DNA from: Roseburia sp. AF12-17LB
GTDB taxonomy: Bacteria > Bacillota_I > Bacilli_A > RF39 > UBA660
Length of the DNA stretch: 64,000 nucleotides
NCBI GenBank assembly: GCA_963607615.1
Contig: CAVDCT010000010.1
Coordinates: 133-64,132 of the forward strand
Direction of reading: 5' to 3'
Position numbers and translations under genes: made by a program. Every line of letters begins with the position of its first letter. The stretch's first letter is position 1. Below the pieces are notes generated by a model that had not been told where the DNA came from, searched no databases, and saw only the letters and a program-made list of their open reading frames with translations. Positions 4,642 to 64,000 of this stretch are shown here, piece after piece.

Positions 4642-5511
4642 CTATTTATTTTCTATCAATTTATCATTCTTTTTATCTAGTTTCTCTATACCAACAATAT
4701 TTTTATCATTTACTAATATTGACAATTCCTTTCTTGCTGTTTGATTTAATTTTTCTAATCTTATTTTTTGTTCAATATTATTATCAATCATACTAGCATT
4801 TAAAACTTCAAGATTACTTAAAACTACTAAATGTAGTATATCTGTATAATCTCTTATATTACCCTCTAGGTTAGGATTTTTATCTTTCCATTCTTTTGCT
4901 GTCATTCCAAATAAAGCAACATTTATAACATCCGCTTCATTGGCATATACATATTGTCTTTGGTTATCTGTTATTTTAGGAATTATATTTTCTTTTATAC
5001 TATCAGTATGAATTCTATAATTTGTTTTAGATAGGCTTCTTCTAACAGACCATTCAATTTTTTCTTGATAACCTTCATTATATTTTAATCTTTCAAATTC
5101 TTGTATTAAATATAGCTTAAATGCAGTATCAATCCAAGAAGCAAATTCCAGGGCAATATCTGGATGAGCAAAAGTTCCTCCATTATACTTTCCCCTTTTA
5201 CTAATAAAACCCTTAGAATTTGTCATACTAATCCATCTAGAGGGGCTCATAGTAAACGATTGATTTGCTGAATCATTTTTAAACTCGCGAAATTCCGCTA
5301 GTTTAAAATCTTCATTAAATAATTCCTCCCAAAGACAATAAAAATCAAATGAACTTTTATTACTCATCCATTTTATAATAACATCTCCTGGATTGTCAGG
5401 ATTCTTATATCTTGCTAAATCTGTTAATGAAATATAATCAATATTATTTATCCTAATTACATTAATTAAATTATCTTTAACATTCATTGTTGTTTTAATT
5501 TTATTATTCAT
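4642..5511 (-). CDS. KilA-N domain-containing protein
   Basis: N-terminal ..IRINNIDYISLTDLARYKNPDNPGDVIIKWMSNKSSFDFYCLWEELFN.. and C-terminal ..ANEADVINVALFGMTAKEWKDKNPNLEGNIRDYTDILHLVVLSNLE.. Both blocks are characteristic of KilA-N family proteins of mobile elements. Confidence 0.65.
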   Translation of the reverse strand: MNNKIKTTMNVKDNLINVIRINNIDYISLTDLARYKNPDNPGDVIIKWMSNKSSFDFYCLWEELFNEDFKLAEFREFKNDSANQSFTMSPSRWISMTNSKGFISKRGKYNGGTFAHPDIALEFASWIDTAFKLYLIQEFERLKYNEGYQEKIEWSVRRSLSKTNYRIHTDSIKENIIPKITDNQRQYVYANEADVINVALFGMTAKEWKDKNPNLEGNIRDYTDILHLVVLSNLEVLNASMIDNNIEQKIRLEKLNQTARKELSILVNDKNIVGIEKLDKKNDKLIENK

Positions 5512-6003: not shown

Positions 6004-7026
6004 CTATATATTTTTATATTTATTATATAAAACAGAATTATATTTAATATATTTTTCTTTAGCTAATCTTCCAACTATAAAACTCATACATATTTTATTA
6101 TCATGAGAATATTTTAACATTTTTTGTTCATTTAAATTAAGCTTTATTATTTCATTCCAATCATAATCATTAATCATTGTCTTAATAGCAAACTCATCTG
6201 CCCTTTTCTCTCTATATTCATCGCCATCAATTATAGTCTTACTTTGAGCCATTACATAATCACTTTTACAATGTCCTAATTCGTGGAACAACTCAAAATA
6301 AAACGAATCTTTAGTACTATAATTTTTAGTTACATAAATAGTTGGTGTTTTTCCCTTTACTCTAAAGCATCCTCTTACTTTAGTACCGGGCAAGGCCTTT
6401 TCACATACAAAGAAAATACCATATTTATTTAAGATATTAATTATATTATTAACATCTATATCTTTCTTATATGATTCTATAATCAAATCATGAATAACTT
6501 CATTAAATTTATTAGAATCATATACGCCTACTTTTTGATTAACAACCAATTTATCACAACGCGCTATCCAAAGAGCTAATTTATTATAATCATTACCTGT
6601 TTTCTTAAATAACGTATAATTCTTTAATTTCTCAAAAGCATCAAAATCTTTCACATTCAAAAAGTTTAATATATCAACACAAGATTGAAAAACACTTGTT
6701 TCATCTTTAAATGAAACCCAATCATTTTTTTTAAGTTCATTAAAACAAAAATCTTTTTTTATTATTTGATTTAATTTATCTTCATTTTCATATTTATCTA
6801 ACAATTCTTTAATCAATATTCGTTTATTTTCAACTGAAATAATAAAACTAGCTGGAATATCAGTTAATCTTTCAATAGTACCAGCCATAATTAGTGTAAT
6901 ATTTTGCTTACCACTTAATATTTCATTCATATGCTTTTGAGTAATACCTAATCTTAAAGCAAATTCTGATTGCGATATATTATTATATTCCAAATAATCC
7001 TTTAAAAAACTACCAAAACCAATCAT
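6004..7026 (-). CDS. Xre-type HTH fused to an ImmA/IrrE (COG2856) zinc metallopeptidase domain
   Basis: N-terminal HTH (NISQSEFALRLGITQKHMNEILSGKQN) and C-terminal HExxH (FELFHELGHC). The likely start is ATG 7026 (MIGFGSF), behind GGGGAGGGA, which overlaps the stop of the upstream ORF. Confidence 0.7.
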   Translation of the reverse strand: MIGFGSFLKDYLEYNNISQSEFALRLGITQKHMNEILSGKQNITLIMAGTIERLTDIPASFIISVENKRILIKELLDKYENEDKLNQIIKKDFCFNELKKNDWVSFKDETSVFQSCVDILNFLNVKDFDAFEKLKNYTLFKKTGNDYNKLALWIARCDKLVVNQKVGVYDSNKFNEVIHDLIIESYKKDIDVNNIINILNKYGIFFVCEKALPGTKVRGCFRVKGKTPTIYVTKNYSTKDSFYFELFHELGHCKSDYVMAQSKTIIDGDEYREKRADEFAIKTMINDYDWNEIIKLNLNEQKMLKYSHDNKICMSFIVGRLAKEKYIKYNSVLYNKYKNI

Positions 7027-7027
7027 A

Positions 7028-7363
7028 TTATCCCTCCCCATAGTGTTTATCATCTATCTCAACAAATTCAATTTCAATTATCTCTTCTAAATTATTATAT
7101 GGATAGTTAGAGCATGGTTTCATATGTAATCGCAATTTACTATTGAGATGAGCAGTATATATCTCTTTTAAGTTAACACCCTTCTTCTCTATACGATATA
7201 TATTATGTAATGGATTTAACATTAATCTCTTCATGTTATCCGATTCAATTATCAATTCTTCTACCTTAGATAACTTTTCCAACTCATTATCCATATGTTT
7301 CTTTTTTAATTTCTTATAATCACTTTTAAATTTACTACTTTTTATTATTATAATCAGAACCAC
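7028..7363 (-). CDS. Small protein, possible RelE/ParE-superfamily toxin (weak call)
   Basis: 111 aa. It has a ..KSSKFKSDYKKLKKK.. N-terminal block like RelE/YafQ-type toxins. It sits directly upstream of, and is translationally coupled to, the HTH-COG2856 gene. The start codon is uncertain (GTG at 7363). Confidence 0.35.
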   Translation of the reverse strand: MVLIIIIKSSKFKSDYKKLKKKHMDNELEKLSKVEELIIESDNMKRLMLNPLHNIYRIEKKGVNLKEIYTAHLNSKLRLHMKPCSNYPYNNLEEIIEIEFVEIDDKHYGEG

Positions 7364-17497: not shown

Positions 17498-18778
17498 TTA
17501 TATAATCTCTTCTATCATATTAATATTACAATTATCTATAATGTATTCTTTACTATTTTTCATATCTTTAAGTTTAAAACTATTTTGTAATACTTCATCT
17601 TCTCCTAAAATAATAACATAAGGTATTAATTCTTTATTAGCATAGTCTAAACTTTTCTTTAACTTTCTATTATTCATTTCTATATCTACTCTATAACCTA
17701 ATTCTCTTAATCTATTAGCAAGTATTAAACTTTCAATATTAGTATTCATAGGTATGATATAAATATCAATATTATTATTTATTACTTTATCTTTTAATAA
17801 TTCATATAATGATGATAATCCAAAACTTATACCAACAGCAGGATAATTAGTACCATCATCTATAAAGTCAGTAATCATTTTATCATATCTACCTCCTCCA
17901 CCAATACTACTAGTTATTTTATTATTAGTAGAATATACTTCAAATACATTACCAGTATAATAATCTTGTCCTCTAGCTAGTGTTGGAGTAAATACACAAT
18001 ACTTAGTTATATCTAATGCTTTAATATATTGTTCTAACTCATTTAATTCTTTTAATCCTTTTAATAATATTTCATTACTAGTATTACTAAATAAATTATT
18101 TAATTCATTAAGAGATAAAGTAAAATAATTCAATAATATATTAGATGTATCTATATTAACACCTATATCGAATAATAAATTTATTATCTCATCTTTAGTT
18201 AATTTTTCCAATTTATCTAAAATAGTTATTACTTTAGATACTAATGATTCTTCAATACCACATTCTAAAATTAATCCTTTCATTAAGTTACGACTATTAT
18301 ATTTAATAATAATTTCTATATTAAATTTATTAAAAGCATTAACATATAAACTTAATAGTTCTGCTTCAATCATTTGACCTTCTAATCCAACTACATCAAC
18401 ATCACATTGTGTAAATTCTCTATCTCTTCCTACTTTAATAGGACCATCTCTAAATACTTTAGCTATTTCATATCTTTTAAATGGGTATTTAATCTTATTT
18501 TTATTTAAAGCTATTAGTTTAGCAAATGGTACAGTTAGATCATATCTTAATCCTAATTGTCTACTTCCTTGATCTGTTAATTTATATATCTCTTTTAATA
18601 GATCGTTATTTTCATCATATTTATCACTCAAAATATCATAGTAACATAATATTGGAGTTTCAATTGGTTTATATCCATAATTTTCAAAAACTTCTTTTAA
18701 AGTATCATTTATATAATTTCTAACTTTTTGTTCTTTAGGTAAATAATCATATCCACCTTTAACATTTTGTATTTTCAT
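17498..18778 (-). CDS. hisS: Histidine--tRNA ligase
   Basis: MKIQNVKGGYDYLP..LRYDLTVPFAK..REFTQCDVDV.. The true start is ATG 18778, behind GAAGGA. The 21 extra codons of the track ORF run through the leader terminator. Confidence 0.9.
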   Translation of the reverse strand: MKIQNVKGGYDYLPKEQKVRNYINDTLKEVFENYGYKPIETPILCYYDILSDKYDENNDLLKEIYKLTDQGSRQLGLRYDLTVPFAKLIALNKNKIKYPFKRYEIAKVFRDGPIKVGRDREFTQCDVDVVGLEGQMIEAELLSLYVNAFNKFNIEIIIKYNSRNLMKGLILECGIEESLVSKVITILDKLEKLTKDEIINLLFDIGVNIDTSNILLNYFTLSLNELNNLFSNTSNEILLKGLKELNELEQYIKALDITKYCVFTPTLARGQDYYTGNVFEVYSTNNKITSSIGGGGRYDKMITDFIDDGTNYPAVGISFGLSSLYELLKDKVINNNIDIYIIPMNTNIESLILANRLRELGYRVDIEMNNRKLKKSLDYANKELIPYVIILGEDEVLQNSFKLKDMKNSKEYIIDNCNINMIEEII

Positions 18779-18797: not shown

Positions 18798-18826
18798 AAA
18801 AAAACTATACATCTCCTGTATAGTTT
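18798..18826 (-). terminator. Leader (attenuator) terminator 20 nt upstream of the hisS start
   Basis: Minus-strand AAACTATACA-ggaga-TGTATAGTTT followed by TTTTTTT. Confidence 0.7.
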
Positions 18827-18882
18827 TACTTTTTTATTCATATACAGGCAAGCACCACAAATAGCACTTGCCCTACAACAAT

Positions 18883-18948
18883 TTAATGTCGTATTAACAA
18901 GTGCAGAATATTATGATGATGTCTGTTATTTATTATTTGCTTATTCAT
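18883..18948 (-). CDS. Candidate hisS leader peptide, 21 aa with 5 His (MNKQIINNRHHHNILHLLIRH)
   Basis: ATG 6 nt after AGAGGGA. The reading frame is ATG AAT AAG CAA ATA ATA AAT AAC AGA CAT CAT CAT AAT ATT CTG CAC TTG TTA ATA CGA CAT TAA. It lies between a promoter-like element and the leader terminator. Confidence 0.5.
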   Translation of the reverse strand: MNKQIINNRHHHNILHLLIRH

Positions 18949-18970
18949 AATAATCCCTCTTTCTAACTAA

Positions 18971-18999
18971 ATACTAACATAAATAAAATTATAAGTCAA
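18971..18999 (-). promoter_or_regulatory. Putative sigma-A-type promoter of the hisS leader
   Basis: Minus-strand TTGACT-N17-TAGTAT, immediately after the terminator of the upstream gene. Confidence 0.4.
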
Positions 19000-19027
19000 A
19001 TAGAAAAAATATAGACCGTAGTCTATA

Positions 19028-20176
19028 TTATAATTCGATATTAGAACTTTTAAATTTCTTTTCTAATCTTTTTACTGGTCCTGATTTATCACGTAGGATA
19101 CTAGATATTGATTGTCCATGATGTATCTTATAAATAATATCTGCTACTAGTGGTGAACAATCACATATATGTAACCATTCATTATTTTTATATTCTTCTT
19201 TAATATGAACTAAGTTTGTAGTATAAACTCCTGATAATTTTCCATCTTCATAATATTTTTGAAACTTATCAACACCTCTTACAAATAGAGAGTAAGATAC
19301 AACTAAATATATATTTTTCACACCCTTTTTACTCAGTTCATCAATGACATCAAACATACTTCCACCACTTGAAATCATATCATCACTTACAATAGCAGTA
19401 TATCCTTCAATATTATCATTACCACAATAATCATGAGAAATAATTGGATATTTACCATCTACTAGGTGATTATAATCTCTCTGTTTAACAAAGCTTCCTG
19501 TTTCACGATGTACATAAGGAGAATTAAATGAATTTAAATATACATTTCTTCTTCCAGTAGCACCATTATCTGGCGCTATAAATACAATATTTCTAAGTTG
19601 TTCAACTGGTAAATCATCAATTATATGATTTAAAATAATTTCAGTTGGGAAAACATTATCAAATTCCATATGCTCTATTGCATGTTCAACACTAGGATCA
19701 TGAGCATCAAAAGTACAAAATGATCTAATACCACGATTTTGATCTAATTCACGTAATACTTGTCCGCACATTAAATTTTCTCTAGTATTTCTTCTATGTT
19801 GACGTCCTGCATATAAAGCTGGCATTATAATATTAATATTATCTGCATGACGATTACAAGCACCAATACCATCCTTTAGTTGCATAAGTAAATCATTAGG
19901 TGATGTATGATTTGTATAACCACACATATTATATGTTAATGAATTATTATGTATATCAGTAAGGAAGAAAACATCCTTTTCTCTAACTGTTTCTTTAATC
20001 TCTACTTTTAAGTGACCATCCTCAAAAAATAATTCATTAATAGGAATCATAAAAGTACTATTTTTATCTAAATGATATGAACGACATAATTCTTCATCCA
20101 CCTTTTGTCCTAATTCCATAGCACTCTTAAAAACAATTAATCTAAGTTTTGAATTTTCTACAAGTCTTTTTTCCAC
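19028..20176 (-). CDS. Ribose-phosphate pyrophosphokinase-like phosphoribosyltransferase
   Basis: ..IIMPALYAGRQHRR.. and the PRPP-binding loop ..AIVSDDMISSGGSMFD.. The probable start is GTG 20176, 6 nt after GGAGG (the track uses TTG 20206). A hairpin plus T-run at 19004-19028 overlaps the stop. Confidence 0.75.
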   Translation of the reverse strand: MEKRLVENSKLRLIVFKSAMELGQKVDEELCRSYHLDKNSTFMIPINELFFEDGHLKVEIKETVREKDVFFLTDIHNNSLTYNMCGYTNHTSPNDLLMQLKDGIGACNRHADNINIIMPALYAGRQHRRNTRENLMCGQVLRELDQNRGIRSFCTFDAHDPSVEHAIEHMEFDNVFPTEIILNHIIDDLPVEQLRNIVFIAPDNGATGRRNVYLNSFNSPYVHRETGSFVKQRDYNHLVDGKYPIISHDYCGNDNIEGYTAIVSDDMISSGGSMFDVIDELSKKGVKNIYLVVSYSLFVRGVDKFQKYYEDGKLSGVYTTNLVHIKEEYKNNEWLHICDCSPLVADIIYKIHHGQSISSILRDKSGPVKRLEKKFKSSNIEL

Positions 20177-20248
20177 ATTATACCTCCAATCAACATTATT
20201 ATACAATATTCATAAATGACTTTTAAAGTTATTTTATCTTTTTTTAAT

Positions 20249-20567: not shown

Positions 20568-21878
20568 TCATTTCTTTAATTGATAATTATCTAGTATATT
20601 CTTATTTTTTAATTCTTTTAAAACTATATAAGTACTAGTTGTTAAATAATCTAATTCATATATATTATCATTATAATATATAGCAGTTATTTTTCTTTCA
20701 TAGTCAACCCATATCAATAGCCATAAACCATCTAATTTATTTATTTCATTTATATATTTTTCAAAATAATTATTATATTCAGTAGTATAACTACTAATTA
20801 AAACACGATTAATTAGTTTCTCTTCATAATTATATTGTTTAATATTACTATTAATATTATCACTTATATTTTTGGTAAAATCAGTAGTTACAAAATATTT
20901 CTTTTGATAATCTTTTATATTAATATTTAAATTTAAGCTTTCAAAAAGTTTTTGATCTTCTAAACTATATCTACTACTACATAAATATTCTGTATCAGAT
21001 AATACAGTTAATCCAATTAATAATTTTTCATCAGAATTAAAATTATATATATCTTTAAACAAATCATAGATTAATAGTGCTGTACTAGCATATTCCATTT
21101 CTAATATATTATCAACTTGATAAGATATAATATGATGATCAATAGCGCCTACAACACTACTTTTATCTAAACCATCTAATGTATTATGATCAACTAAAAT
21201 AAATTTTTTATTTTCTAAATCATCAATAACTTCAGGCTCAATATTAAAGTGATCATTAATTAATTTGATATCATTTAAAGAGTATTCGTAGTCACATGAT
21301 AATATACAAAAATGAGCTTTAATAGACATATTATTTAAAATATTACTTAATAAATAGCTAGAAAATAAAGAATCAGCATCTGGATGATTATGTCCTAATA
21401 TATATACTTCATCAGTACTTTCATTAATAATTTTATTTAATATTTCTCGTTTTAATATAGTTCTAGCTTGACATAGTATTTTACCAAAATTATTTTGTCC
21501 ACTACTATCTTTACCTATTCCCCAATAATATTCATCAATAGTTTTTTCTATAATTTCTTCATTACGTGTTTCAATAAGTTTATAAAGTATTTCTTTATTT
21601 TGTCTAAATTTTTCTAATACCCCTTTTAACATAACTTCTTGTTTTATACTTTTAAAATTATCTTTTCTTTTATTATTTCTATCTCTTCCTATATTTGATG
21701 CTTCTTTTGGTGTTTCACAATTTATTATTTTCATACGTATTTTATCATCACTAAATTTTTCTGATTGATAGTAGTGCTCCACAGTTTTATAATAAATTCC
21801 ATCTTTATAAAAACCATAATTAGCATAATTAGCTAAATAACCTAACTCCCCAAATTCTTTATAAAATTCTATAGCCAT
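20568..21878 (-). CDS. NADAR (YbiA-like) domain fused to a DHH-family phosphoesterase domain
   Basis: N-terminal ..YYKTVEHYYQSEKF..EASNIGRD..DEYWGIGKDSSGQNNFGKIL.. (NADAR pattern). C-terminal ..ILGHNHPDADS..VDHN..GAIDHHI.. (DHH motifs). Confidence 0.65.
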   Translation of the reverse strand: MAIEFYKEFGELGYLANYANYGFYKDGIYYKTVEHYYQSEKFSDDKIRMKIINCETPKEASNIGRDRNNKRKDNFKSIKQEVMLKGVLEKFRQNKEILYKLIETRNEEIIEKTIDEYYWGIGKDSSGQNNFGKILCQARTILKREILNKIINESTDEVYILGHNHPDADSLFSSYLLSNILNNMSIKAHFCILSCDYEYSLNDIKLINDHFNIEPEVIDDLENKKFILVDHNTLDGLDKSSVVGAIDHHIISYQVDNILEMEYASTALLIYDLFKDIYNFNSDEKLLIGLTVLSDTEYLCSSRYSLEDQKLFESLNLNINIKDYQKKYFVTTDFTKNISDNINSNIKQYNYEEKLINRVLISSYTTEYNNYFEKYINEINKLDGLWLLIWVDYERKITAIYYNDNIYELDYLTTSTYIVLKELKNKNILDNYQLKK

Positions 21879-21880
21879 AA

Positions 21881-23530
21881 CTACTCCTTTGCTCCTGGAT
21901 ATAAATATTTATCTTTTTCTGTTACTTTTTCATTAATGTTATCAATATTAATAATTTTTCTAAATGATGTTTGACCATTTTTTGATGCTGTATTAAAAAG
22001 TTCTAATTTTTCAATAATAATACTATCATTATATCCACAACTTAAACGCCATACATAATTTTCTTGTTTCATTGTACTACAATGTCTACCATAGTTTCTT
22101 TCATGAGTTGGTGTTAATGGTTCGTTTATACTAGTTGTTAAACCTTTAAATAGATTAATAGCACGACCTAAATTACAAATCATCCCTGTATCTATAGTAA
22201 ATTTAGAATCAAAGAAAGCATCAGATGGATAATTTGCTTCTTTTAAAGCTTCTATATAAATATTAATAAGTGGTATAACATGATTAATAATATATTCATA
22301 TTTATCTAATTTTTCATTTTTCTTATATTCATTAGCAATATTATAACAAATAGAAAGAACTTCTAAAACATCATTCCATGTTGAATTTTGATACTTATCT
22401 CTTAAAGTCATTCCATGACCTTGTTTAAACTCACAAATAGCATTTAAAAAGAAACGTTCTGTTATAATATATCCAGATTTTCTTCTTTTAGTTTCAGGAT
22501 AAATATTAAATCCGTAATTACCTGTATTTTCTAATCTTGGATTAATAGAGTAATACTGTCCGTCATTATTATTAAATTTATATACTTCACAAGTTCTAAT
22601 TGGTTTCATATCATTATTAATTAAATACTCTAATAATTGTTTTTCATTATCAACTATAAATGGTAAATGATATTCTTTAAAATAAACTGGTTTTTCTGAC
22701 AAAGTTAAAGCATGTGTATAAGGATCACTTACAAAAGATTCGTTTAAAACTACATTTTTATCAATTGATATAAATAGATAATTTCCTGTAGCAAGTACCA
22801 TATGGTCATTAAATTTACTAATAATAACGCAACTATTTACTACTAATGGATTATATCTTAATTCAACACACATCTTACGAGAACCTGTACCAAATTTATC
22901 ATAATATGGTTTATATATTTTCAAAAAATTACTTATATCATGTTGATATTCTTCTAAGCTAGTATTAGAATTCTTATCTTCATATACTCTACCATATTGA
23001 CTAATAGATAAACGAACTCCAGCTAAAGCCATAATTAAATTACTAGATGCTATAAATTTATGCATTTCATTTAATCTTAAATTATGACGACTAAATCCAA
23101 CAGTTGATATTCTAGTTTTAACACCTAATTCTTTATAACCTAATTCAATAAATTTATCAAGATATGGGTAACTACCAATATCATTATCAAGATATGGAAA
23201 AATAACACCTAATCGATGTTCAAAACGATTCCAAGCTAGTAGTGGTTCATCATGTGTATAATTTAAAGCTGCATATTTAATAGCACTAATAATGTTTCTA
23301 ATAGTAGATTCATTCCAATGCTCACTTTTACAAACAGAAAACTTACTACAAAAACTACAATTATTAAAGCATCCAATTTGTGGTTGAAAATGTCTCATAC
23401 GTGATAAGAAATCACTTGGTAAAGTTATAAATGTATCATATAATTCTTTTCTTATTTTATACTCATTATCAGAAATAGTTTTTTCATCATTAAGCAAAAA
23501 GTTCACATTATACCCCCTCTTTATGCTCAT
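21881..23530 (-). CDS. Radical SAM protein of unknown function (549 aa)
   Basis: CxxxCxxC cluster in ..QPQIGCFNNCSFCSKF.. The family is not recognisable by eye. It overlaps the LysR gene by 23 nt. Confidence 0.65.
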   Translation of the reverse strand: MSIKRGYNVNFLLNDEKTISDNEYKIRKELYDTFITLPSDFLSRMRHFQPQIGCFNNCSFCSKFSVCKSEHWNESTIRNIISAIKYAALNYTHDEPLLAWNRFEHRLGVIFPYLDNDIGSYPYLDKFIELGYKELGVKTRISTVGFSRHNLRLNEMHKFIASSNLIMALAGVRLSISQYGRVYEDKNSNTSLEEYQHDISNFLKIYKPYYDKFGTGSRKMCVELRYNPLVVNSCVIISKFNDHMVLATGNYLFISIDKNVVLNESFVSDPYTHALTLSEKPVYFKEYHLPFIVDNEKQLLEYLINNDMKPIRTCEVYKFNNNDGQYYSINPRLENTGNYGFNIYPETKRRKSGYIITERFFLNAICEFKQGHGMTLRDKYQNSTWNDVLEVLSICYNIANEYKKNEKLDKYEYIINHVIPLINIYIEALKEANYPSDAFFDSKFTIDTGMICNLGRAINLFKGLTTSINEPLTPTHERNYGRHCSTMKQENYVWRLSCGYNDSIIIEKLELFNTASKNGQTSFRKIINIDNINEKVTEKDKYLYPGAKE

Positions 23531-26724: not shown

Positions 26725-27384
26725 TTATTGTAAATAAATTCTTACTGTTTCTCCTTCTTGTATTTTTGTACCAGCCTCTGGAGATTGATATAACACCTTT
26801 CCACTACCATCAATTTTAACATTAAATCCTTTTAAAGATTTTTGTGCGTCTTTTAATTCCATACCAACAACATTAGGTATTTCAATATATTTCTTATCTA
26901 AATAAGTATATTCTTTTTCAATAGATCCTGTTCTTTTCTCAATACCTAAAATATCTATTATTGACGTCATAATATTTTTAGCAAGTGGTGCTGCTACTGT
27001 TCCTCCATATTGAGTAACACCTTTAGCATTATCAACAGCAACATAAACAACTACTTCAGGATCATCAGCAGGTAATATTCCAATAAAAGAAGTTATATAA
27101 TTACCTACCATATATTTACCATCACTAACTTTCTGAGCTGTTCCTGTTTTACCACCTACTCTATAATCTGCAATATAAGCATTATGTCCTGTACCACGTG
27201 CTACAACACTTTCTAATGCATATTTAACTTTTTTACTTGTTTCACTACTTATAACACTTCTTACCTTTGTTGGAGTATTTTGCAAAATAACTTGATTAGT
27301 TTCTGGATCATTAATACTTTTAACAATATATGGTTTATAAAGAGTTCCACCATTAACAGCAGCACTAACGGCTGTTATTTGTTG
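26725..27384 (-). CDS. 3' segment of the interrupted class B penicillin-binding protein gene (KTG motif plus one PASTA domain)
   Basis: In-frame sequence upstream of the track ORF reads (SI)QQITAVSAAVNGGTLYKPYIVKSINDPETNQVILQNTPTKV.. It then contains ..GGKTGTAQKV.. and a C-terminal PASTA-like ..IPNVVGMELKDAQKSLKGFNVKIDGSG.. This segment has no start codon of its own. Confidence 0.85.
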   Translation of the reverse strand, partial: QQITAVSAAVNGGTLYKPYIVKSINDPETNQVILQNTPTKVRSVISSETSKKVKYALESVVARGTGHNAYIADYRVGGKTGTAQKVSDGKYMVGNYITSFIGILPADDPEVVVYVAVDNAKGVTQYGGTVAAPLAKNIMTSIIDILGIEKRTGSIEKEYTYLDKKYIEIPNVVGMELKDAQKSLKGFNVKIDGSGKVLYQSPEAGTKIQEGETVRIYLQ

Positions 27385-29014
27385 TATAGAGGTCTAATAA
27401 ATGAAACTTTTTGCCTAAATTATCAGAAGTAGTATATACACTTTCTCCTGTCTTAATAAAAATATCTAATTTAATCCCTCTATCACTTTGCTTGTGAACT
27501 ATTATTTTATCTATTAATTCATTAAATACATCACTATAACATTTATCATCTTCTAAACACTTCTCTAATGCATTTCTAAGTTTCTCAATTTTATTTTCTA
27601 TATAATTTTTATCTTCCTTATTGTTTTTTAATTCATCCATTTTATTTTGATAAATCATTAAATCTTCATTTATTAAATCTACTTGTTTTTTATAATCGTC
27701 TTTAGATAAGTATTCTTCCATAACTAATTCTAATAATTTATCTTTTTTATTATTTAAAACTATTATTTTAGATTCTAAACTTTTTATTTCTATTTCATTA
27801 TTATTAGTTTCTAAATAATTCTTACACTCATTTAATATCTCATCAAATATATTATTTCTTCTTTTAAATAATTTATTAAACATATCTTTAAAAACTTCAT
27901 CAAGTTCTAGTTCAAATACTCTAGGATTAGAACACCCTTTTAAACTTTCTTTCCGATATACTTGACATTCCCATACAGGATTATTTTTTCTTTTTCCAGC
28001 ACTTGATCTATGATAAGTTAAATTATGGCAGCCACAATATATTTTTCCTGAATATGTATATCTATTTTGAAATACTGCTTTATTAACTGCACGATTTGTA
28101 AAACTATCTTGTCGTTGCTTTAGTTTAATATTAGCTCGTTCCCATAGTCCTTCAGATACTATTGGTGGAACATTATCATAATCTTTGTATATTATCCAAT
28201 CAGATTCATTTAATCTTTTCTTTTGCTTAGTACGATAATCTAATACTTTTGATTTATGTCCACAATAATACCCTTTATATTTAGGATTTTCTATAATTCT
28301 AGTTAGTATTGTAGTATCGATTCTTTTTCCTGTTCTACTTTTGTAACCTATACTATATAAATATCTTGATACTTTAGATAATCCATCAGTAGTATTAGCA
28401 TATCTATCAAATATTATTTTAATCATTTCTGCTTGTTCTTCATCAATTACTAATTTTCCTTTATCTTTTACATAACCATAAATATTAGAGCAACCTAGTA
28501 CCACACCATTATCAATACTTCTTTTCATACCAAATGAAACTCTTTCAGATAGTCTTCTTACTTCATCTTGAGCAATACTAGACATCATGGTAAGTCTAAG
28601 TTCAGAGTCAGGTAATATTGTATTAATATTATCATTTAGAAAATATACACCAACACCATTAGATAATAATTCTTGTGTATACATAATACTATCTAATGTA
28701 CTTCTTGAAAATCTTGATATTTCTTTAGTTAATATTAAATCAAATTTGTGTCTTTTAGCATCTTCAATCATTCTTAAAAATTCTTCTCTTTTTTTAACTT
28801 GTGTACCTGATATACCTTCATCAATATATGAACCTATAAAGCACCAGTTAGGAACTTTACTAATATATTCATTAAAGAAAGATATTTGACTTTGCAAAGA
28901 ATGTAATTGTTCATCTTTATCAGTTGATACTCTTGCATAAAAACATACTCTTAAATTTAATTCTTGTAGTGGAACACCTTTCATAATATTATTCCTAACT
29001 GTATATAAGTCCAT
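27365..29014 (-). CDS. Large serine recombinase
   Basis: ..RVCFYARVSTDKDEQLHSLQSQ.. (resolvase catalytic Ser), ..LTKEISRFSRS.., a recombinase domain, a Cys-rich zinc ribbon (CGCHNLTYH..WECQ..GCSN) and a C-terminal coiled coil. Start ATG 29014 is 7 nt after AGGAGG. The last 7 codons and the stop lie beyond the element boundary. Confidence 0.9.
   Translation of the reverse strand: MDLYTVRNNIMKGVPLQELNLRVCFYARVSTDKDEQLHSLQSQISFFNEYISKVPNWCFIGSYIDEGISGTQVKKREEFLRMIEDAKRHKFDLILTKEISRFSRSTLDSIMYTQELLSNGVGVYFLNDNINTILPDSELRLTMMSSIAQDEVRRLSERVSFGMKRSIDNGVVLGCSNIYGYVKDKGKLVIDEEQAEMIKIIFDRYANTTDGLSKVSRYLYSIGYKSRTGKRIDTTILTRIIENPKYKGYYCGHKSKVLDYRTKQKKRLNESDWIIYKDYDNVPPIVSEGLWERANIKLKQRQDSFTNRAVNKAVFQNRYTYSGKIYCGCHNLTYHRSSAGKRKNNPVWECQVYRKESLKGCSNPRVFELELDEVFKDMFNKLFKRRNNIFDEILNECKNYLETNNNEIEIKSLESKIIVLNNKKDKLLELVMEEYLSKDDYKKQVDLINEDLMIYQNKMDELKNNKEDKNYIENKIEKLRNALEKCLEDDKCYSDVFNELIDKIIVHKQSDRGIKLDIFIKTGESVYTTSDNLGKKFHLLDLYTTNNSR
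27392..27404. repeat. Terminal inverted repeat, recombinase end (attL side)
   Basis: GTCTAATAAATGA, the exact reverse complement of 44230-44242. Confidence 0.8.
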
Positions 29015-29025
29015 AATCACACCTC

Positions 29026-61689: not shown

Positions 61690-63432
61690 CTATCTTAACT
61701 TGATATGTACTTCTCTTAATTGTTGTTCACTTAATTCTGAAGGACAACCCATCATTCTATCTTCTCCGCTAGCACTAGTTGGGAATGCTTGTACTTCACG
61801 TAAATTTTGTTCATCAGTAAGTAACATTAAAATACGATCAATACCAGGAGCCATACCTGCATGAGGTGGAACACCATATTTAAATGCTGTAAATAAAGAT
61901 TTGAATCTATCCTCTACTTCTTCTTTTTTATAACCAACTATTTCAAAACCTTTAGTTAATGAATCTAAATCAGTATTTCTAACAGCACCACTTGCCATTT
62001 CATACCCATTACATACAAAATCATATTGGTAAGCTAAAATATCATCAATTTTCTTATTATCATAATCACTAATACCACCATGAGGTAAACTAAATGGATT
62101 ATGACAAAATTCATATTTTCCTGCTTCATCATCATATTCAAACATTGGAAAATCATTAATTATACAAAATTCATAACGATTATTATCAATCAAATCTAAG
62201 CGATTAGCTAATTCTGTCCTAATCATTCCAGCTTGTTTAGCGGCCATTTTTTCTTTTCTATCAGCTATAAAGAATAACACACTACCTACTTTTAAATTGG
62301 CTTTTTCAATCAAATTATTACGATCAGTTTCTGTTAAGAATTTATCAATTGGTCCTTTAAAACTCATATCTTCCATAACTGTAATATATCCAATACCTGG
62401 CATACCGATTTTTTTAGCATAATCAACTAAGTCATTAAACCATGAATTAGATTTACTAGCTAAATCATCTACTTTAATAGCACGTACTACATTACCTCTA
62501 AATGGTTTGAAATCAGATTCGGCAAATATTTCACTAATATCTATTATTTCAAGAGGATTTCTTAAATCCGGTTTATCTGTTCCATATTTTAACATAGCAT
62601 CCTTATAAGATATTCTTTTAAATGGAGCTTTACTTACATATTTATCACTAAATTCAGTAAAGATTGAGTAGAAAACATCTTCTCCTATTTTATATACGTC
62701 TTCTTCATCTACAAAAGCCATTTCCATATCTAATTGATAAAATTCTAAGGTTCTATCAGCACGAGAATCTTCATCTCTAAAACAAGGTGCTATTTGATAA
62801 TATTTATCAAAACCTGATACCATTAATAGTTCTTTAAATACTTGAGGAGCTTGGGGTAAGGCATAAAATTTACCTTTAAATTTACGTGATGGAATAATAA
62901 AATCACGAGCTCCTTCAGGTGAAGATGCTGTAATAATAGGAGTTTGTACTTCTGTAAAATTTAAACTATCCATTTTATTACGAATAAATTTAAGTAATTT
63001 ACTACGTAAAACAATATTATTATGAACTTTATCATTACGTAAATCTAAATAACGATATTTTAATCTTACTTCTTCTGATACATGTGTTGAAGTTTTTATT
63101 TCAAATGGTAATTCATTCAAAGATTTACCAAGAATTGTTAATTCATCAACTAATAATTCAATTGTTCCTGTTTTAATTTTCTCATTATAATCATCTTCAT
63201 CGCGTTTACGAATTATTCCTGATAAAGTAACTGCTGATTCTTTTGTCAAGCCATTAAAAATACTATCATCATTACTAACTACTTGTAAAATTCCATGCTC
63301 ATCACGGATATCAACAAAGATTACACCACCATGATCTCTAATATTTTCAATCCATCCTGCAACACGTACTTTATTTCCTATTTGTTCTTCATTTATATCT
63401 CCACAAAATATAGTTCTATACTTTTTGTTCAT
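61690..63432 (-). CDS. aspS: Aspartate--tRNA ligase (bacterial type)
   Basis: MNKKYRTIFCGDI..VRVAGWIENIRDHGGVIFVDIRDEHGILQV.., ..QIAPCFRDED.., ..GGISD.., ..AFPTSASGEDRMMGCPS.. Start ATG 63432 is behind AGGAAAGAG. The track's 19-codon extension overlaps asnS. Confidence 0.95.
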   Translation of the reverse strand: MNKKYRTIFCGDINEEQIGNKVRVAGWIENIRDHGGVIFVDIRDEHGILQVVSNDDSIFNGLTKESAVTLSGIIRKRDEDDYNEKIKTGTIELLVDELTILGKSLNELPFEIKTSTHVSEEVRLKYRYLDLRNDKVHNNIVLRSKLLKFIRNKMDSLNFTEVQTPIITASSPEGARDFIIPSRKFKGKFYALPQAPQVFKELLMVSGFDKYYQIAPCFRDEDSRADRTLEFYQLDMEMAFVDEEDVYKIGEDVFYSIFTEFSDKYVSKAPFKRISYKDAMLKYGTDKPDLRNPLEIIDISEIFAESDFKPFRGNVVRAIKVDDLASKSNSWFNDLVDYAKKIGMPGIGYITVMEDMSFKGPIDKFLTETDRNNLIEKANLKVGSVLFFIADRKEKMAAKQAGMIRTELANRLDLIDNNRYEFCIINDFPMFEYDDEAGKYEFCHNPFSLPHGGISDYDNKKIDDILAYQYDFVCNGYEMASGAVRNTDLDSLTKGFEIVGYKKEEVEDRFKSLFTAFKYGVPPHAGMAPGIDRILMLLTDEQNLREVQAFPTSASGEDRMMGCPSELSEQQLREVHIKLR

Positions 63433-63445
63433 TGCTCTTTCCTTT

Positions 63446-64000
63446 CTAATATTCACAATTATTAGGTGTTCTAGGATATGGTATAACATCTCTTATATTT
63501 TCAACACCAGTTAAATAGATTAATAATCTTTCAAAACCCATTCCGAATCCAGAATGAACGCATCCACCATATCTTCTTAAATTTAAATACCAATCCAATT
63601 CATCTTTATTCATGCCTAATTCATCCATACGAGATGTTAAATTATCATAGTCATTTTCTCTTTCAGAACCTCCCATTAACTCTCCAACACCTGGAATTTC
63701 AAGATCTACAGCTGCTACTGTTTTTTGATCATCATTCTGTTTCATATAAAATGCTTTAATATCTTTTGGCCAATTTTTAATAAATACTGGTCCATTAAAA
63801 TATTCAGTAATATATTTTTCATGTTCTTTAGCTATATCTTCTCCATATTCAGGTTCAAATTCCCATTTTACATCAGCTTGTTTTAATATTTTAATTACTT
63901 CTTCATGATCAATTCTTACAAATTCTGTACTAATAAGTTTTACTAATTTATCCTTTAATCCTTTTTCAACAAATTTATCAAAGAAATCTATTTCTTCCTT
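63446..64000 (-). CDS. asnS: Asparagine--tRNA ligase, 3' part (the 5' end is beyond the window end)
   Basis: C-terminus ..GELMGGSERE..WYLNLRRYGGCVHSGFGMGFERLLIYLTGVENIRDVIPYPRTP.. The reading frame stays open upstream of 63745 to the window edge. Confidence 0.85.
   Translation of the reverse strand, partial: KEEIDFFDKFVEKGLKDKLVKLISTEFVRIDHEEVIKILKQADVKWEFEPEYGEDIAKEHEKYITEYFNGPVFIKNWPKDIKAFYMKQNDDQKTVAAVDLEIPGVGELMGGSERENDYDNLTSRMDELGMNKDELDWYLNLRRYGGCVHSGFGMGFERLLIYLTGVENIRDVIPYPRTPNNCEY

Follow-up and report, generated by a model that had tools for sequence, protein, structure and literature searches.

How do bacteria of the Bacilli adjust the supply of histidyl-tRNA synthetase (HisRS) when charged tRNA-His becomes scarce? 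Leader-peptide attenuation that senses amino acids is textbook for Proteobacteria, whereas Firmicutes are thought to rely on T-boxes for their synthetases. The 64-kb stretch of DNA analyzed here (the window) is, based on window-wide Pfam results, part of a bacterial chromosome. It has 24% GC and belongs to an uncultured small-genome gut member of the Bacilli. The relatives carry the labels Bacilli, "Tenericutes", CAG-609, CAG-460, or Ca. Coprovivens. In the window, the HisRS gene hisS is preceded by a short open reading frame (ORF) with a run of three histidine codons, a chain of mutually exclusive RNA pairings, and an intrinsic terminator. We propose, with a probability of about 0.8, that this leader is a ribosome-mediated leader-peptide transcription attenuator that raises hisS transcription when charged tRNA-His is scarce.

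All elements of the leader are read on the minus strand. A preliminary description, made from the letters of the window, had placed a promoter, a Shine-Dalgarno (SD) sequence, a 21-codon ORF, and a set of competing pairings here, and we find all of these at the same coordinates. The anatomy, from 5' to 3', is as follows.

18971..18999, minus strand: promoter, with the -35 element TTGACT at 18999-18994, a spacer of 17 nucleotides (nt), and the -10 element TAGTAT at 18976-18971
18979-18978, minus strand: TG extension of the -10 element
18960-18954, minus strand: SD sequence of the leader ORF, AGAGGGA
18948-18883, minus strand: leader ORF of 21 codons, product MNKQIINNRHHHNILHLLIRH, then a stop
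18913..18921, minus strand: candidate sensor run CAU CAU CAU, codons 10-12, with its first base 17 nt 5' of S1
18896..18904, minus strand: S1, GCACUUGUU, within ORF codons 15-18, partner of S2; core GCACUUG at 18904-18898
18883..18885, minus strand: leader stop codon UAA, inside the loop of the S1:S2 hairpin
18864..18873, minus strand: S2, GGGCAAGUGC, partner of S1 or S3; core GGCAAGUGC at 18872-18864
18841..18857, minus strand: S3, made up of S3a and S3b
within 18841..18857, minus strand: S3a, UGGUGCUUGCCU, pairs with S2; core GUGCUUGCC at 18855-18847
18848-18841, minus strand: S3b, CCUGUAUA, pairs with S4 as the antiterminator
18827-18817, minus strand: S4, AAAACUAUACA, the 5' arm of the terminator; UAUACAGG at 18822-18815 is common to terminator and antiterminator
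between S4 and S5, minus strand: terminator loop GGAGA
18811-18801, minus strand: S5, UGUAUAGUUUU, the 3' arm of the terminator, pairs with S4; the U-run ends at 18798
18798..18827, minus strand: the whole intrinsic terminator
18789-18784, minus strand: ribosome-binding site (RBS) of hisS, GAAGGA
18778-17498, minus strand: hisS coding sequence, 426 amino acids (aa), the regulated gene; its ATG at 18778 lies 19 nt past the U-run

Transcription starts about 16 nt 5' of the leader ORF, and relatives have a TTGACA / TGnTAnAAT-type promoter at the matching place. The hisS product is a full-length HisRS, with the Pfam domains tRNA-synt_His and HGTP_anticodon and 341 bits on TIGR00442 (cut-off, 287). 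The minimum free energy (MFE) of the 201-nt leader is -48.9 kcal/mol, which beats all 200 shuffles (z = -4.7); the single elements come to -19.5 (S1:S2), -15.7 (S2:S3), -6.6 (S3b:S4), and -10.0 kcal/mol (terminator). With a covariance model built on the family, the window contains one copy, at 118.5 bits, and the next match, at 23.6 bits, is noise.

Is this leader more than a chance arrangement? A scan anchored on HisRS, with one genome per species, gave 69 loci, in which HisRS identity is 57 to 75% where the leader is present. A homologous leader ORF lies directly 5' of hisS in 31 of these loci, and the covariance model added 3 leaders at the head of hisS-containing operons, so that the ORF, the His run, the terminator, and the alternative pairings are kept at 34 of the 69. 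We also searched metagenome contigs with a pattern that held the RNA segments S1, S2, the loop, and S3 only, without His codons and without an ORF. At least 120 loci matched, and about 110 of the 120 matches listed have HHH or at least two His codons at a fixed distance of 17 nt from S1. Because the element is conserved in relatives and at metagenome loci, it is more than chance.

The 129 unique leaders among the genome loci and the metagenome matches listed show how strictly the ORF is tied to the RNA. An SD sequence and an ATG-started ORF are present in all but one of them. HHH stands 17 nt before S1 in 97/128, and nearly all others have at least two His codons there. In 101/128, the distance from the first base of S1 to the leader stop is exactly 19 nt. 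S2 begins 8 to 17 nt past the stop. In the 8 codons before the His run, stop codons occur only twice in frame 0 (125 leaders) and 218 and 163 times in the other two frames. Most leaders have 8 or 9 codons ahead of the run, and the sequence of these codons varies freely. As judged from this pattern, the leader ORF is under selection for translation, and the N-terminal peptide sequence is not conserved.

The preliminary description had counted five histidine codons as a possible sensor, of which the HHH run stands and the other two do not. His16 (CAC) lies within S1 and persists in a different frame in one relative (L059) and in leaders with a Cys-codon run, and therefore it is conserved as RNA. 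His21 belongs to the inner stem, and many relatives lack it. Based on these comparisons, only the run at codons 10-12 is a candidate sensor, and His16 and His21 are passengers constrained by the RNA. A separate observation concerns genomes labelled Clostridia (L037 and L040-L065, metagenome-assembled genomes with a HisRS 56 to 59% identical), in which hisS has no leader-peptide attenuator but just a promoter and a short 5' untranslated region with a small hairpin. L049, the sole locus of this group scanned for a T-box, has none.

The competing pairings are found again in relatives, where all of them are conserved and covary. In an alignment of 27 long-form genome leaders (A1), S1:S2 is paired in 94.4% of cells with 4 covarying pairs, S2:S3 in 97.9%, the S4:S5 terminator in 92.4%, and S3:S4, the weakest helix, in 84%. 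At terminator column 165:191, 13 sequences have A-U and another 13 have G-C. For each of the four helices we directly observe compensatory changes, with a signal that exceeds every one of 500 shuffles and breaks down once the partner column is shifted. The most telling case is a linked triple: 5 sequences have A-U in place of G-C at column 72:117, and these 5 also have U-A in place of C-G at 117:126, that is, S1 G to A, S2 C to U, and S3 G to A together. Read from the alignment, this linked change is as expected of an S2 that switches between two partners. For S3:S4 we used the metagenome set, whose search pattern left out S4 and S5. There the mean energy of a leader's own S3-S4 duplex is -8.83 kcal/mol, compared to -7.78 for cross-pairings, and none of 5000 permutations reaches the observed mean. 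The terminator that had been described in front of hisS is thus real and conserved, with a U-run in every leader examined, genome and metagenome alike. The RBS of hisS lies outside all strongly conserved helices.

One segment of the classical attenuators is missing. In the leader alignment, nothing 5' is complementary to S1 as a protector segment (segment 1 or A) would be. The best duplex of the upstream region with S1 averages -3.6 kcal/mol, weaker than shuffled controls (-4.5) and far from S1:S2 (-11.9), which rules out a hidden protector. A helix of His codons 2-3 with the S2:S3 loop, seen in the window MFE, was also rejected, as it is complementary in just 53/121 leaders and without compensation. 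A further helix is possible:

18906..18956, minus strand: leader spacer plus AUG, GAUUAUUAUG at 18955-18946, with His3 plus the next 7 nt, CAUAAUAUUC at 18915-18906

In 118 leaders (alignment A2, columns 19-29 with 78-89), this helix is paired in 86.4% of cells, compared to 23 to 69% when the partner is slid. Its covariation score is 0.168 versus 0.105 shuffled, with 0/500 shuffles reaching it, and two lineage types covary, AUUAUUAUG/CAUAAUAAU versus AUUUUAUG/CAUAAAAU. The sequence is AU-rich and periodic, so support for this possible helix is moderate; it may limit re-initiation on the leader. The His-run region also matches the RBS region of the downstream gene better than permuted pairs do.

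Which pairing switches hisS on? The preliminary description had left the on/off logic open, and it is a second architecture that settles it, with S1:S2 as the ON and S2:S3 as the OFF pairing. Besides the long form with S1 to S5 (the window and most loci), there is a short form with S1 to S3 only, found at L009, L012, L014, L021, L063, and about 8 metagenome loci among the matches listed. In the short form, S3 runs directly into a U6 run followed by the hisS RBS, so that S2:S3 is the terminator and S1:S2 the antiterminator. Since S2:S3 with U6 is a terminator there, S1:S2 must be the ON state, and starvation can then induce hisS only if S1 is not covered by the stalled ribosome. This agrees with the geometry, which is read directly from the leaders. 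Counted from the first base of His codons 1, 2, and 3, S1 begins 17, 14, and 11 nt further on, respectively, and a ribosome covers about 12 nt beyond the first A-site base, as known from toeprint and footprint data for E. coli.

The attenuator would then work as follows. The 21-codon ORF would be translated during its transcription. If His-tRNA is in short supply, the first ribosome would stall with one of codons 10-12 in its A site, and its leading edge, about 12 nt past the A-site codon, would end just short of S1 at +17. S1 would be left free to form S1:S2 (-19.5 kcal/mol), and S3 would remain available for S4, which is the terminator's 5' arm; with S3:S4 formed, RNA polymerase would read through into hisS. 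When His-tRNA is plentiful, the ribosome would cross S1 and halt at the UAA in the S1:S2 loop, with S1 covered and S2 not. S2:S3 and then S4:S5 would form, and transcription would end at the U-run. Without a protector segment, the prediction for a leader that is not translated is read-through and not termination. The footprint positions, the kinetic order of folding, and the response in vivo are what we infer here.

Ribosome-mask folding, in which A-site positions -15 to +12 were masked and transcripts were ended before S5, is consistent with this scheme. S4 sequestration has a median of 0.74 as long as the A site has not passed the His run and falls to about 0.59 thereafter. In the window it falls from 0.58 to 0.34 as the A site leaves the run, and the MFE structure shifts from S1:S2 plus S3b:S4 to a 12-bp S2:S3 hairpin. 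Ribosome-free folds equal the stalled state. In full-length folds, the terminator probability is low only with the A site at His1 or His2, in all short and several long forms. The leader thus has the parts that mark the attenuator class, namely, an ORF with an RBS, a cluster of cognate codons, an intrinsic terminator, and an antiterminator that depends on ribosome position; the protector segment is the part that it lacks.

Do the histidine codons set the specificity of the switch? His-type copies head hisS alone, hisG-hisS, an M20 peptidase gene with hisS, a gene for a 494-aa protein plus an S66 peptidase gene plus hisS, or an operon for an 83-aa unknown protein, a phosphoribosyltransferase (PRTase), and a SLOG protein, with or without hisS. 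In other copies the run itself is changed. On the same scaffold, four loci have H-C-C or H-C-I at the run position: two of them (L125 and L176) precede a radical-SAM gene and then cysS (the CysRS of L125 scores 293 bits), and in the other two the contig ends inside the radical-SAM gene (L114) or before any gene (L132). One copy (L147) reads D-D-D, with short-form logic and an extended S2:S3 terminator, before an aspartate-tRNA(Asn) ligase gene (531 bits). A divergent copy (L184), with S1, S2, and S3 fully compensated, reads W-H-H before an M20 peptidase gene and trpS (217 bits). This codon-synthetase match is a direct observation. The codons change with the downstream synthetase and the RNA does not, which strongly argues that the codons are the specificity determinant.

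A wider proposal, towards which we lean only slightly, is that one conserved switch (S1 to S3, with or without S4 and S5) serves as a general, re-codable regulator of aaRS operons in this lineage. A change of three codons would retarget it from hisS to cysS, aspS, or trpS. It would be the ribosome-read analogue of the T-box specifier, would coexist with T-boxes, and would be ON by default when the leader is not translated. If this is true, termination is an active consequence of efficient translation.

Several observations about these operons deserve to be recorded in their own right. A short-form HisG (196 to 200 aa, PF01634) is encoded directly between the His attenuator and hisS at L090, L170, L184, and other loci, with no separate hisZ in view. 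Short HisG normally requires a HisRS-like HisZ subunit. On the HisZ model, the HisRS reaches 173 bits, which falls short of the cut-off. A recurrent His-attenuated operon (L075, L076, L084, L094, L109, and others, also L153:4830 onward) encodes a protein of 81 to 96 aa without a Pfam match, followed by phosphoribosyltransferase-like and SLOG cluster-4 proteins and often then by hisS. At L073, genes for the 494-aa unknown protein and for an S66 LD-carboxypeptidase (MccF-like) lie under a His attenuator 5' of hisS. MccF-type enzymes detoxify aminoacyl-adenylate mimics, and by this analogy the operon may be linked to resistance against synthetase inhibitors.

Some results weigh against our reading of the leader as an attenuator, mainly for the copy in the window. 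There, as well as in L069 and L003-5, S3 is split, and S3a and S3b overlap by just 0 to 3 nt (2-3 nt in the window), so that S2:S3 and S3:S4 are only weakly exclusive in these copies; in most long forms, S3 shares 5 to 6 nt between its two partners. The window antiterminator has 8 bp and, at -6.6 kcal/mol, is weaker than the terminator at -10.0. At equilibrium, the full-length window RNA has a terminator probability of 0.96 at any ribosome position, and the model therefore rests on co-transcriptional kinetics. Equilibrium folding of the full-length leader was for this reason set aside as a test of the window, being terminator-dominated and uninformative, and transcripts ended before S5 were used instead. 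A kinetic mechanism is required, as it is in all attenuators, and the window copy is less clean than most of its relatives. The limits of the ribosome footprint were taken from E. coli. The shuffle and permutation controls leave phylogenetic relatedness in. A simple terminator scanner did not call the hisS-leader terminator, because its stem holds just 2 G-C pairs. Finally, the Cys, Asp, and Trp variants (4, 1, and 1 loci) are probably each a single evolutionary event.

Among the alternatives, the one that survives best, although we regard it as quite unlikely, is the classical segment-1 logic that the preliminary description had implied. In this scheme the stalled ribosome masks S1, S2 pairs with S3a, and S3b is free for S4, so that S2:S3 is the ON and S1:S2 the OFF pairing. 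The small S3a/S3b overlap in the window would allow this; with the ribosome at the stop codon, the MFE structure keeps a 6-bp S3b:S4 beside S2:S3, and the untruncated MFE structure has S1:S2 together with the terminator. The distance between the codons and the RNA argues against the scheme, as a stalled ribosome would not reach S1, which begins 17 nt past the first His codon. Moreover, the short-form S2:S3 with its U6 terminator would shut hisS off in histidine starvation, most long forms share nucleotides of S3 between the two partners, and masked S4 sequestration is highest, not lowest, with the ribosome on the His run.

A further possibility, which seems to us very unlikely, is that the leader senses translation speed in general, or acts on translation through occlusion of the hisS RBS or pyrBI- or ermC-like coupling, and is not a His-tRNA-specific termination device. 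The complementarity of the His-run region to the leader start and to the downstream RBS region, which exceeds that of permuted pairs, could be read in this way, and antibiotic-sensing ribosome-mediated attenuators exist in Bacillus subtilis (PMC4191407, PMC9226507). The hairpin and U-run, however, covary and are conserved directly 5' of very different first genes, the hisS RBS is outside the strongly conserved helices, and codon identity follows the cognate synthetase, which would be needless for general speed sensing.

Could a T-box have been missed? Firmicutes aaRS genes are usually under T-box control, and the preliminary description had seen no canonical T-box at hisS. A scan with the Rfam models agrees with it. 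The 64-kb window gave no Rfam match at gathering score, the hisS leader gave no T-box (RF00230) and no His_leader (RF00514) at E<=10, and 20 related loci (134 kb) contained neither. As a positive control, a 214-kb contig assigned to the same species by an identical AspRS and the same gene order gave a canonical T-box with 121.1 bits (E = 3e-28). The organism therefore does use T-boxes, and the model can find them in DNA as AT-rich as this, so that hisS, where none is found, is a true exception. The T-box lies at L190:4881-5330, just past window position 64000, and is directly followed by two tRNA-Asn genes (anticodon loop CUGUUAA), a terminator, and gatC-gatA-gatB-asnS-aspS. A T-box ahead of tRNA genes is an unusual arrangement. 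We also rejected the idea that the S2:S3 loop holds a UGG bulge like that of a T-box or mimics an anticodon, as the triplet varies (GUA, GUC, AGA, AAA, and others).

A switch that works without the ribosome, either a degenerate T-box-like tRNA-His sensor or a HisRS-bound operator with an incidental ORF, is extremely unlikely: although T-box control is the usual one for such genes and the S2:S3 loop and start of S3 read UUGUGGUGC in the window, like the T-box UGGN and the GUG anticodon, UGG/GUG is not conserved, no T-box match appears even at E<=10 in a species with a 121-bit T-box elsewhere in its genome, the frame is strongly selected open with SD and AUG conserved, and the codon run turns to Cys or Asp along with the synthetase while the RNA segments are unchanged. 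A phage origin, suspected from the 24% GC, weak Pfam matches, and a NADAR-DHH neighbor, was rejected, as Pfam indicates a bacterial chromosome and there is no close phage HisRS. A second, housekeeping hisS 5' of aspS was also dismissed, as that gene is asnS and the HisRS described here passes the TIGR00442 cut-off.

The hisS unit is set apart transcriptionally by the terminator of the gene in front of it.

19028-20206, minus strand: upstream gene, phosphoribosyl-pyrophosphate (PRPP)-synthetase-like (NF005299, 344 bits)
19004..19030, minus strand: stop codon and intrinsic terminator of the PRPP-synthetase-like gene, AUAUAGAC-UACG-GUCUAUAU plus U6, hairpin -8.2 kcal/mol

Further 5' lie a NADAR-DHH fusion with a faint phage gp30.3 match (20568-21878, minus strand) and a 549-aa protein without a Pfam domain (21881-23530, minus strand). 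Elsewhere in the window, a large serine recombinase (27365-29020), a KilA-N protein (4642-5511), and a helix-turn-helix (HTH) protein (6004-7053), all on the minus strand, suggest integrated remnants of mobile elements. The ORF of aspS (61690-63489, minus strand) starts mechanically at 63489 and has an SD-preceded ATG at 63432 (580 aa); public assemblies record only the shorter of these products.

What does the leader family mean for the regulation of synthetases? A large conserved family in the Bacilli would control the only hisS of a genome in which T-boxes are retained. The His, Cys, Asp, and Trp-His versions before their cognate synthetases amount to a comparative codon swap, which is rarely available for attenuators. 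The layout without a protector predicts that a start-codon knockout leads to read-through, which differs from the classical model (super-attenuation), and this prediction is relevant to the tightness of transcription-translation coupling in Bacilli. The short form would be a three-segment amino acid sensor of about 120 nt that can be recoded for synthetic biology. The family also marks a putative histidine regulon in uncultured gut bacteria that includes hisS, hisG, the M20 peptidase gene, and the PRTase-SLOG operon with the 83-aa unknown protein.

How does this leader compare with known systems? The preliminary description had likened it to E. coli hisL and pheM, which is correct, although both have the protector segment that is missing here. 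In E. coli pheM-pheST, a leader peptide rich in cognate codons attenuates its cognate synthetase through four segments that include a protector. The hisS leader likewise uses cognate codons in a leader peptide to control transcription of the cognate aaRS gene, and it differs in phylum, amino acid, and sequence. With hisL of Salmonella and E. coli (RF00514) it shares a short translated ORF, a His run, an exclusive hairpin chain, and an intrinsic terminator; S1 to S5 correspond to his segments B to F, and S1 to S3 of the short form to trp segments 2-3-4. In the his leader, stalling favors the set of B:C plus D:E type and read-through (PMC4046918). The differences are that no similarity in sequence or on the covariance model was found (no match at E<=10), that hisL has 7 His codons and the hisS leader 3, and that these lie 5' of the first pairing segment, whereas in hisL they lie inside it. 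Without segment A, the untranslated hisS leader is predicted to be ON, whereas hisL is OFF. Unlike the his operon leader, it regulates a synthetase and only sometimes hisG.

The T-box (RF00230) is similar in function, as it senses the charging of a specific tRNA, antiterminates the cognate aaRS gene, and has a swappable specifying codon. In the hisS leader, by contrast, the codon would be read by a translating ribosome and not by the tRNA, and Stem I, the specifier loop, and the T-box sequence are all missing.

His-leader attenuation is not unprecedented in Firmicutes. It has been predicted before the hisS paralog and hisZ of Bacillus (PMC2965389) and before his operons of the B. cereus group, Peptostreptococcaceae, and Erysipelotrichales (PMC9413887). 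These leaders also have 3 to 5 consecutive His codons just 5' of hairpins and a terminator, and they replace the T-box or HisR. By inspection, in a comparison covering the Peptostreptococcaceae leaders of the PMC9413887 supplement, these share no S1-S3 motif with ours. Unlike the published examples, the scaffold described here controls the genome's only hisS, has long and short forms, and is recoded. B. subtilis has been shown to sense antibiotics through ribosome-mediated attenuation of transcription (PMC4191407, PMC9226507, PMC6851288), so coupling in Bacilli is no obstacle. In the literature we found no description of this leader family, of control of cysS or aspS by a Cys or Asp leader peptide, or of a catalogued hisS, cysS, or aspS leader motif, and the element is not in Rfam. 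The class of mechanism is textbook, with hisL, trpL, and pheM as its examples, and the new points are the family itself, the lineage that hosts it, the coexistence with T-boxes, and the natural recoding.

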